A DNA stretch of 64,000 nucleotides, taken from the NCBI RefSeq assembly GCF_044324875.1, contig NZ_CP172185.1, one strand, 5' to 3'. The DNA comes from Escherichia coli. GTDB taxonomy: Bacteria > Pseudomonadota > Gammaproteobacteria > Enterobacterales > Enterobacteriaceae. The notes below the pieces were generated by a model. It searched no databases and was not told the DNA's origin. It saw only the letters and a list, made by a program, of their open reading frames with translations. The position numbers and the translations under genes are program-made. Position 1 is the stretch's first letter. The number at the start of each line of letters is the position of its first letter. This document shows, one piece after another, positions 46,815 to 47,904 of this stretch.

Positions 46815-47052
46815 CCGTTGTTTTTCTTAAAACAGTTTCCGTTACGAAATCAGCATAGTTAGCGGCGATATCAAGAATATTTAGCCCTGTATCCCTGTGC
46901 TCATCAGTGCAAAGAAAGAAAAAAGCCACCCGCATAATTTCAGATATTGACGAAAGCGCATCAGCCGCATTATCAGGAACGCCGGAAAATTCCTGTTTCA
47001 GGGAATTAAAACGATCATCACGCATAACCCCCACCATTTTCACAATCAGCAA
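46804..47052 (-). CDS. Hypothetical protein (~82 aa)
   Basis: ORF. Confidence 0.35.
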   Translation of the reverse strand: MLIVKMVGVMRDDRFNSLKQEFSGVPDNAADALSSISEIMRVAFFFLCTDEHRDTGLNILDIAANYADFVTETVLRKTTGGD

Positions 47053-47257
47053 TCAGGATAGCTTTGGCCTCATTCAGCGCCATATCAGCACTAAGTTGCA
47101 TAACCGCCAGCGAATGAGGAACGAAAGCCCCGGCATATTCTGTTTCACTGGTGGCGTGCTTATGTGCCCTGTCAGCAATAACAGAAATATCAATAAGCGC
47201 GTGCATCAGCGTAGTGAGCGCGGCGGCGGCTGCGTCCGGACGGATGTTATTGCACAT
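47018..47257 (-). CDS. Hypothetical protein (79 aa)
   Basis: ORF beginning MCNNIRPDA. Confidence 0.35.
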   Translation of the reverse strand: MCNNIRPDAAAAALTTLMHALIDISVIADRAHKHATSETEYAGAFVPHSLAVMQLSADMALNEAKAILIADCENGGGYA

Positions 47258-47420
47258 GGCACACCTCCTGACGAATACGGGAAACGAAGATAAGACGGTC
47301 AGCCGGAATCAGGGCGCGGGCTTCGCGCTCAGTGGCAGCGGTGACGGTGTGAAGGTGGATGTTTTTACCGTGGCACTGCATGAAGCGCCAGACAAAGTAA
47401 GGGCGTGTGAATACAGCCAT
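47247..47420 (-). CDS. Small hypothetical protein (57 aa), paralog of 47707..47904
   Basis: Shares FVWRF...HVTA(A/W)TEREAR...IRQ with the neighbouring small ORF. Confidence 0.4.
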   Translation of the reverse strand: MAVFTRPYFVWRFMQCHGKNIHLHTVTAATEREARALIPADRLIFVSRIRQEVCHVQ

Positions 47421-47706
47421 GTGAAAGGCTCCTGTAGTGAAATTAAGGAGTCTCGCTACTACGCTGTCAAACATGGTGGCGAGACGTAACAGGGTTGACA
47501 GACTGGCACTACAGGAACCAGCGAGCGCAAAGGCTCCCCCGTTACGCCCCGCCATAATGCGGGTATGGGTAGGCTTACGGACACAAAAAAACCGCATATC
47601 GGAATGTAAGCGGCTGTCCGCTGTAGTATTCAGGCTGTCAAACCCGGTCGCCATGTGGGCGACACAGGAAGAATACAGCCCTGTGATAATTTTTTGCAAG
47701 CGGTTT

Positions 47707-47904
47707 TTACACATGGGCCACCCCCTGACGGATACGGGCGGCGAATACAGCGACACAACCGGACGGGCAACGGTTACGCGCTTCGCGTTCCGTCCAGGCG
47801 GTGACGTGGATGATTTGGGATTCTCCGGCACTCAGTGCCAGAAAACGCCACACAAAGGCGGTTTGTGTGTGCGCAAGGCGTGGGGTATGCTGTGTTCCAG
47901 CCAT
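47707..47904 (-). CDS. Small hypothetical protein (65 aa), first gene of the leftward operon
   Basis: C-terminal 65 codons of the long 47707..48792 ORF, starting MAGTQHTPRL. Confidence 0.4.
   Translation of the reverse strand: MAGTQHTPRLAHTQTAFVWRFLALSAGESQIIHVTAWTEREARNRCPSGCVAVFAARIRQGVAHV

Follow-up and report, generated by a model that had tools for sequence, protein, structure and literature searches.

The locus examined here raises the question of why two related small genes stand in a row at the head of one operon, and of what the DNA between them does. It lies in a 64,000-nt stretch of Escherichia coli DNA (contig NZ_CP172185.1, assembly GCF_044324875.1), called the window below, in which an operon running leftward begins with open reading frames (ORFs) of 65 and 57 amino acids. 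A first-pass annotation of the sequence had read these ORFs as belonging to a two-gene unit that was tandemly duplicated, with one copy decayed and with products acting as helper-phage sensors or interference factors. This study reaches a different answer: the region is likely to be the immunity and early-control leader of a capsid-forming satellite that resembles the phage-inducible chromosomal islands (PICIs), sits at tqsA, and is built like the immI region of P1 and the immunity region of P4. The order of the leftward operon is the control region, the upstream gene (IcdU), a longer ORF resembling P4 eta (the eta-like ORF), the downstream gene (IcdD), a 79-aa ORF (ORF79), small ORFs, a DUF4222 gene, and a RepA helicase gene.

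Two Icd/Kil-family genes and the C4 RNA between them

Both small proteins match the NCBIfam family NF033153 ("host cell division inhibitor Icd-like protein"), IcdU at 64.9 bits and IcdD at 51.1 bits, where the curated cutoff is 25 bits. The first-pass annotation was right in calling them paralogs, of which two diverged copies stand at the head of the operon: 24 of 53 residues are identical (45%; BLASTP, E 3e-12). The DNA similarity also extends beyond a short motif, as had been expected. Its only significant block (47857..47703 against 47397..47246) shows 63% identity and a Smith-Waterman score of 85, compared with 24.6 ± 3.6 (maximum 41) in 300 shuffles. The block comprises the core of the Icd protein and the 3' ends of the genes, ending about 10 nt past each stop codon, instead of the DNA around the start codons where the similarity had been placed. 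Counted by codon position, variable sites number 30/32/50 in IcdU and 20/20/34 in IcdD, with an excess at the third position in both.

The NF033153 family includes the P1 cell-division inhibitor Icd and P4 Kil, and is not a known sensor family; no support was found for the idea of a helper-phage sensor or interference factor. The P1 record notes that Icd inhibits host cell division, and by analogy with P1 Icd and P4 Kil, the products of IcdU and IcdD probably arrest host division or growth. In PHROGs, both proteins fall in with P1 Icd (phrog_1426) and with families that bear the label "transcriptional repressor". The label goes back to the time when P4 cI was annotated as a protein: in the P4 RefSeq record (NC_001609, 8168–8584), cI remains a 137-aa "transcriptional repressor", and this name has passed into PHROGs. 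Proteins of the IcdU type form 111 cluster representatives, mostly from E. coli and annotated as Icd-like. Pfam gave no match for IcdU, IcdD, the 98-aa extension of the eta-like ORF, or ORF79. A tblastn search of IcdD against the phage collection (E<=1e-3) was empty, the protein being too short and diverged, and a pattern search of genome contigs based on the Icd alignment gave 75 matches, none of which passed tblastn. An AlphaFold model of an Icd-type protein (pLDDT 78) predicts a beta-beta-alpha-beta fold, for which no informative structural neighbour was found.

A neighbour-joining tree puts upstream and downstream Icds in two distinct clades, of which the downstream one groups with the P1 Icds. 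The two clades diverged long ago, and the pair is therefore not a recent local duplication. IcdU and IcdD are old paralogs, each native to its own C4-family module.

As judged from its sequence, the 294 nt between the Icd genes is filled by a P1/P4-type C4 antisense RNA and its target sites (Table 1). An RNA of the C4 family is expected to be about 77 nt long, to be processed from a longer transcript by RNase P, and to repress in trans. The predicted fold of the C4 RNA matches the family consensus (minimum free energy −46 kcal/mol, z −5.65), and over about 190 nt (47651..47462), the DNA is 75–82% identical to the c4 region of phages D6, P1, and P7. The Rfam scan of this region covered 44000..51000, with gathering scores of 45 bits for C4, 46.7 bits for c4-a1b1, and 50 bits for isrK; a second C4 was looked for and not found, and by Rfam scan the C4 is the sole RNA of its kind in the 64-kb window. 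Inverted repeats I1, I2, and I5 support the a2/b2 sites. Across the entire leftward transcript, the b' loop pairs best with the b2 site at the IcdD Shine-Dalgarno (SD) sequence (−23.8 kcal/mol, against a mean of −7.3 ± 3.3 kcal/mol). The same b' duplex scan of the leftward transcript gave no C4-complementary site near the start of IcdU, which has its own SD (GAGG, 47915..47918).

Table 1. Features of the Icd-C4-Icd region and its neighbours in the window
Feature	Position	Strand	Match or basis
Divergent control region between IcdU (-) and the YlcI/YnfO-family gene (+)	47905..48090	.	flanking genes
YlcI/YnfO-family gene	48091..48268	+	NF041551, 63 bits
IcdU, upstream Icd/Kil-family gene, 65 aa, first in leftward operon	47707..47904	-	NF033153
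Eta-like read-through ORF, 155 aa, from ATG at 47714 through a1/b1, C4, and a2/b2, ending as IcdD	47247..47714	-	open frame
Promoter-like site inside eta-like ORF: TTGCAA (47699..47694), 18-nt spacer, TATTCT (47675..47670)	47670..47699	-	P1 alignment
a1/b1 upstream (decoy) target sites for C4; position of P4 seqA	47621..47676	-	Rfam c4-a1b1, RF03163
a1, TTTGACAG	47642..47635	-	
b1, ACTACAG	47627..47621	-	
isrK-like element: a1b1 hairpins, short hairpin, and U-run (GCGGTTTTTTT, about 47600..47585)	47585..47663	-	Rfam RF01394
C4 antisense (immunity) RNA	47472..47559	-	Rfam RF01695 (clan CL00128), 72.3 bits, E 4e-13, model 1-87 of 87
C4 b' loop, UCCUGUAGUG	47516..47507	-	
C4 a' single strand, CUGUCAA	47501..47495	-	
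a2/b2 target sites on IcdD leader; position of P4 seqC	47427..47471	-	complementarity to C4
a2, TTTGACAG	47471..47464	-	
b2, CACTACAGGAGCC	47439..47427	-	over IcdD SD, 8 nt before IcdD ATG
IcdD, downstream Icd/Kil-family gene, 57 aa, nested in eta-like ORF	47247..47420	-	NF033153
ORF79 (MCNN...), next gene after IcdD; position of P1 ant and P4 epsilon	47018..47257	-	phrog_5146

The IMG/VR collection was scanned with a conserved 15-mer, which gave 44 contigs carrying the module, and 26 distinct modules were compared. The a1 and a2 sites are identical to each other and to the reverse complement of a' in 26/26 modules, with two a alleles (GACAG and AGCAG). The b' loop occurs as 12 alleles, each with matching b1 and b2 sites. 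Cognate b'-b2 duplexes have a mean of −7.2 kcal/mol, compared with −0.75 ± 1.5 kcal/mol for non-cognate ones, and none of 600 non-cognate pairs is as stable as the worst cognate pair. Such three-way covariation of antisense and targets is, at the level of the alignments, a signature of diversifying selection for specificity; the heteroimmunity of P1 and P7 is a known precedent for divergence in antisense specificity (PMC12197685). The 2 a and 12 b alleles also make up a ready natural set of orthogonal antisense/target pairs.

The read-through frame and the module in related elements

The 44 module contigs split into two classes, P1-like phages and island-type elements. The C4 of the P1-like class is 74–81% identical to that of the window, with a single Icd downstream of C4 and none upstream. 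The C4 of the island-type class is at least 90% identical, and an Icd lies both upstream (−350..−151, relative to C4) and downstream (+130..+306) in 17/17 loci, which include the window and E. coli GF4. The comparison of copy number in related islands thus gives an Icd on both sides of C4 in every island-type locus, and IcdU only in the related island of E. coli Ch1. The island-type module was found in 141 of 5,426 complete E. coli genomes and was always chromosomal. A search of genome contigs with a C4-core DNA pattern returned only P1-like E. coli, weak C4-like matches in Xenorhabdus and Glaciimonas, and chance matches, and does not establish how far the island-type layout extends beyond Escherichia and Shigella.

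Two full modules in series were found with Rfam in E. coli OkiPb01685 (locus L136) and RM9154-C1 (L138) and in the viral contigs L037, L039, L045, and L080, in the order isrK/a1b1, C4#1, IcdU, a1b1, C4#2, IcdD. Module 1 of these loci is P4-CI-like in sequence and specificity, and module 2 is P1-c4-like. Homology of the window to the double-module loci runs through IcdU and breaks at the IcdU start codon; in the window, the divergent control region with the YlcI/YnfO-family gene stands in place of module 1. From this comparison of sequences, the window holds one and a half modules, module 2 being intact and module 1 reduced to its Icd gene. Relatives thus do carry a tandem repeat, made of a1b1-C4-a2b2-Icd modules and not of the unit that the first-pass annotation had described.

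Further Icd copies were seen at a few loci. In L039 and L045, a third, shortened Icd-like fragment lies upstream of C4 module 1 (−711..−559 relative to C4#2), and the 204-aa protein P0232 joins this third Icd fragment to IcdU in a single frame that crosses the module-1 region. The IMG/VR P1-like contig L116 carries two tandem Icd-like ORFs (+117..+290 and +323..+505) downstream of a single C4, which is a different kind of Icd duplication from that of the window.

The ORF from the ATG at 47714 runs in frame without a stop into IcdD, as the first-pass annotation had observed. In all 17 aligned island-type loci, the span from this start codon to that of IcdD measures exactly 294 nt and keeps the two in frame; it has no stop in the eta-like frame, compared with 3–7 in each of the other frames. 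Two of the lineages have compensating +1/−1 indels. Three more E. coli loci (L136–L138) likewise have the frame open, and the protein database holds at least 120 cluster representatives of 150–155 aa. The ATG overlapping the IcdU stop and the G-rich SD upstream of it are conserved as well. The alignments indicate that the frame is kept open while the peptide is not conserved. If the extension is translated, the act of translation matters and not the peptide sequence.

Similar features characterize the wider family. In a set of 138 NF033153 representatives with pairwise identities below 50%, the Icd domain stands at the very end of the protein (121 have a tail of at most 5 aa), the N-terminal extension has a median of 149 aa, and 87 of 103 extended proteins have an internal Met at the start of the domain. 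The C-terminus is typically xHA or xHV, whose codons contain the ATG of the next gene. In the window, the IcdU stop overlaps the eta-like ATG (ATGTGTAA, 47714..47707) and the IcdD stop overlaps the ORF79 ATG (ATGTGCAATAA, 47257..47247), within a conserved junction, CGTCAGG(G/A)GGTG..CCATGTG(T/C)AA, in which the last Icd codons double as an SD. Because this junction encodes them, the MC(K/N)N starts that the first-pass annotation had noted after both Icds are real and are a by-product of the stop/start overlap. By the same geometry, ORF79 is probably translationally coupled to IcdD.

A promoter-like site within the eta-like ORF (Table 1) aligns with the annotated P1 promoter P1c4 (TTGACC-17-TATAGT) and takes the position of P1 P1c4/P51b and of P4 PLE. 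Its hexamers are kept in island-type relatives (TTGCAA...TATGCT), and L136 has TTGATC-18-TATGAT. The site is a putative promoter internal to the eta-like ORF.

The frame has consequences for annotation. RefSeq/PGAP annotates a 154-aa "Icd-like protein", sometimes marked "frameshifted", whose N-terminal part takes in the C4 RNA region. Such cases occur at L001 (6684–7148) and at L138 (2468–2932); the L138 copy is called "frameshifted" only because of a frame shift of about 32 codons.

A proposed P4- and P1-like leader and its alternatives

Layouts of the same kind are known from P4, P1, and Gifsy-1. In the available text of PMC10111431, which summarizes Forti et al. 1999 (J Bacteriol 181:5225), P4 immunity comprises the promoters PLL and PLE, the elements seqA-cI(seqB)-seqC, and nested eta and kil genes; Kil is a truncated Eta, is translated on read-through, and kills cells. 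P4 shares several features with the window. The P4 CI RNA matches Rfam C4 at 74.9 bits, with isrK and a1b1 matches at seqA. The first gene after the RNA encodes an NF033153 protein of 57–65 aa, where P4 Kil (the last 65 aa of Eta) scores 76.1 bits, and a longer in-frame ORF, which starts upstream of the internal promoter (a putative one in the window), spans the RNA (199 aa in P4 Eta, 155 aa in the window). An 8-nt stop/start overlap leads into the next gene (epsilon in P4), and replication genes follow downstream. Unlike in P4, where eta is coupled to an alpA/vis homolog, the eta-like ORF of the window would be coupled to the Icd/Kil paralog IcdU. The window RNA is closer to P1 c4 (about 80% identity) than to P4 CI, and the host element, a PICI-like island that encodes a capsid, has a RepA-type helicase instead of the P4 alpha primase. 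The window also has a divergent YlcI/YnfO-family gene pair upstream, in contrast to P4.

Alignment with the annotated P1 record gives a1, b1, c4, a2, b2, and icd one-to-one and in the same order, so IcdD is the positional ortholog of P1 icd and of P4 kil. The a specificity (TTGACAG/CUGUCAA) is identical in P1 and the window, b2 overlaps the icd SD, and icd overlaps the start of the next gene. In P1, icd is needed for ant expression. P1-like phages differ in having one Icd and none upstream (28/28 P1-like contigs), and in carrying an in-frame stop just before icd that leaves no eta-like frame. Their downstream gene encodes the antirepressor Ant, whereas in the window it is ORF79, followed by replication genes. 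The b specificity also differs (CUGUAGUG against CACUAACG). The mechanism of c4 is reviewed in PMC12197685.

The IsrK-orf45-anrP system of Gifsy-1 (Hershko-Shalev et al. 2016, PMC4825925; PMC12197685) has an element similar to the isrK-like one of the window, with a1b1 hairpins and a U-run. Its orf45 resembles the eta-like ORF in being a leader ORF that seems to matter through translation or coupling, with conserved nucleotides and varying amino acids. The window differs from it in that its isrK score is below gathering (35 vs 50), in that IsrK activates translation in trans whereas C4 represses, and in having no AntQ-type antiterminator. According to the available text of PMC10111431 (Williams lab), which deals with Gram-negative and helper-embedded PICIs, homologs of CI and seqA (Rfam C4 and isrK) occur in the "Bro zone" of several enterobacterial PICIs, where they probably serve immunity; that text holds no account of the Icd paralog pair, the tandem double modules, or the specificity alleles found in the present analysis.

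The proposal of an immunity and early-control leader is based on the identities of the elements, the complementarity of C4 and its targets, the three-way covariation, and the conservation of the open frame. The mechanism is drawn by analogy with P1, where c4 blocks icd/ant translation, and with P4 (Forti et al. 1999, via the available text of PMC10111431). While the island rests, the internal promoter would give rise to short transcripts that are processed into C4, which would pair with a1/b1 and a2/b2 on the nascent leader RNA and block IcdD translation at the ribosome-binding site. This block would lead to premature termination, and the genes for DUF4222, RepA helicase, single-stranded DNA-binding protein (SSB), and the capsid/packaging proteins would stay silent. 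When the upstream promoter fires, the mRNA would include IcdU. Ribosomes ending IcdU may then re-initiate at the overlapping ATG and read through the C4 region into IcdD, and then into the coupled ORF79. Upstream-promoter transcripts translated in this way would be insensitive to C4, so that transcription would reach the downstream operon and switch on the island. This would correspond to the device described for P4 in the available text of PMC10111431, where eta translation prevents Rho-dependent termination. The products of the upstream transcript would be IcdU and an Eta-like protein that ends in an Icd domain, and the Icd/Kil domains may then act on the host through division arrest or killing.

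Several observations weigh against this reading. The c4-a1b1 match (47627..47676) reaches 44.0 bits (E 8e-9) and the isrK match 35 bits (E 8e-5), both below gathering; near-identical c4-a1b1 copies in relatives score 46.8–48.5 bits, and isrK is above gathering in P4 (60.8 bits) and in module 1 of relatives. A generic promoter scan did not report the internal promoter-like site. The island of E. coli Ch1 (L002), at the same tqsA site, has IcdU without C4 or a second Icd, and therefore the IcdU leader works without a C4 switch in some relatives. Variable sites in the eta-like extension are spread as 19/23/15 over the codon positions, with no third-position excess, and a stretch of about 32 codons is frame-shifted in the lineage of L035, L037, and L045. 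With modules 85–97% identical, common descent could account for part of the openness of the frame. Finally, the promoters, the processing of C4, the termination step, and the translation of the 155-aa frame are deduced from analogy.

Some of these observations would fit a P1-style switch without read-through, in which C4 blocks IcdD and the downstream genes, the 155-aa frame is a gene-caller artefact, and IcdU is an uncoupled small gene. The extension lacks the coding signature seen in both Icd genes, one lineage has its 32-codon stretch in another frame, PGAP flags one eta-like copy as "frameshifted", and P1-like phages function despite the in-frame stop just upstream of icd. The codon-position result is not proof of non-translation, because RNA constraints dominate the stretch and the frame itself is conserved. 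This simpler account is considered unlikely, since it leaves aside a frame that is open in all 17 island-type loci and in L136–L138 at a length held despite indels, in a stretch where the other two frames carry stops. It also leaves aside the conserved ATG and SD at the IcdU stop, the long in-frame N-terminal extensions that are usual across the 138 representatives, and the experimentally characterised P4 eta/kil pair of the same geometry. Another account, somewhat less probable again, holds that the Icd-like proteins are chiefly toxic effectors of abortive infection or superinfection exclusion, with C4 as an antitoxin-like brake and not a life-cycle immunity switch. It can point to the cell killing by P4 Kil in the available text of PMC10111431 and to a possibly comparable prophage-encoded locus in ECOR61 that includes a DNA primase (Silas et al., bioRxiv 10.1101/2023.04.06.535777). 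The placing of the module ahead of the replication genes exactly matches P4, in which it controls the immunity of the satellite itself, and this speaks against a primary effector role; this account is compatible with the immunity-leader proposal and not exclusive of it.

The duplicated-unit model of the first-pass annotation is highly improbable. It was suggested by the overlapping MC(K/N)N ORF that follows each paralog. One gene, Icd, is indeed duplicated, but the unit of a small gene plus an MC(K/N)N gene is not, as the downstream ORFs are unrelated in protein and DNA. The ORF from 47714 had been taken for a degenerate copy of ORF79, but BLASTP (98 aa vs 79 aa) gave no alignment at E<=100, and the local DNA score was 23, against 21 ± 3 for shuffles. 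What had been taken for a decayed copy is a full-length C4 RNA whose targets covary with it, the paralogs come from separate old clades, and their family is Icd/Kil.

Returning to the immunity-leader proposal, an extension of it was also considered, in which the Icd-C4-Icd arrangement is the remnant of a two-stage RNA lock and IcdU, and through coupling the whole island, is gated in trans by a C4/CI-type RNA of a co-resident element. Relatives have a P4-CI-like module before IcdU and a P1-c4-like module before IcdD, each with its own specificity allele; in the window, the first RNA is gone, and IcdU keeps a conserved hairpin in its 5' untranslated region (5'-UTR) and a hypervariable b2-like segment at its SD. 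Such an RNA could come from a satellite of the P4 kind, a P1-like plasmid prophage, or the helper. This extension is very doubtful; if it is true, mobile elements that share a host would be linked by cross-talk or a hierarchy at the RNA level.

A P4/P1-type RNA immunity switch before the replication genes of an island that resembles the capsid-forming PICIs would bear on how such satellites stay silent and are induced. No new principle is involved: work on P1 and P4 established the parts and the logic decades ago, and their occurrence in PICIs was noted in 2023. The architectural twist is modest: an extra, C4-free Icd paralog as putative coupling partner, which is the remnant of a heterotypic module tandem.

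Control region, downstream genes, and host island

The upstream, PLL-like promoter of the leftward operon is probably located in the 186-bp divergent region that precedes IcdU. Three 11-nt near-palindromes, GTG(C/A)ATCGCAC, lie in this region at 47977–47987, 48012–48022, and 48057–48067, and are candidate operators for a protein regulator of the island. The hairpin in the IcdU 5'-UTR (about 47934..47969, minus strand) lies about 40 nt upstream of the IcdU ATG and is followed by CT(A/G)ACCA. Compensatory changes were found in 6 of its 9 predicted pairs across 11 relatives, and locus L044 has a wholly different stem sequence at this position. The hairpin could be a 5' stabiliser or an RNA target.

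The segment directly 5' of the IcdU SD (47913–47930; homologous in L001, L013, L025, L042, and others) is hypervariable between otherwise similar islands. Its variants include GTTAAAC followed by GAGG, GTTAACA followed by GGAG, CGTAAACT followed by AGGAG, and CACTATAGA followed by GAGG. The segment, part of the IcdU leader (GUUAAACGAGG), resembles a b2-type target without a cognate RNA in cis, and no sequence complementary to it occurs elsewhere in the window.

The IcdU frame is also open for 361 codons upstream (47707–48792, minus strand). It crosses the YlcI/YnfO gene and a 63-aa ORF in antisense and closes about 50 nt away from the alpA stop. Similar long upstream frames (237–408 codons) occur in 8 of 17 relatives and not in L002, L035, L041, or L042. 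They may be due to chance, may be an antisense-ORF effect, or may be what is left of a long Eta-like gene, of which L138 has a 550-aa example.

Downstream of IcdD, ORF79 matches phrog_5146 (2.6e-31) and the N-terminal half of phrog_2512, neither of which names a function, and it has no Pfam or NCBIfam match. The next ORF (46804..47052, 73 aa from its ATG) matches the C-terminal half of phrog_2512 (154 aa); since the two ORFs match halves of one PHROG, they are a split, or unfused, version of a protein that occurs elsewhere as a single chain. Their junction is again overlapping (ATGCGTGA).

The island carries int (49408..50637), an AlpA-like gene (48845..49033), a RepA-family helicase gene, and SSB, together with the capsid/packaging genes for an HK97 capsid, S78 protease, portal, head completion protein, connectors, HNH protein, and terminase large subunit (TerL). 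By gene content, it looks like a capsid-forming PICI-like satellite, a class assignment based on the genes present; its relatives are annotated alike. The integrase gene abuts a truncated tqsA beside pntB (49408–53132), and a related island of E. coli Ch1 occupies the same insertion site; the tqsA-pntB flank of the window is 99.4% identical to that strain. Elsewhere in the window, Rfam gave gathering-level matches to STnc560 at 3378–3591 (minus strand, 281 bits) and STnc490 at 32012–32135 (minus strand, 146 bits), which are Hfq-binding core enterobacterial small RNAs unrelated to the Icd/C4 region.

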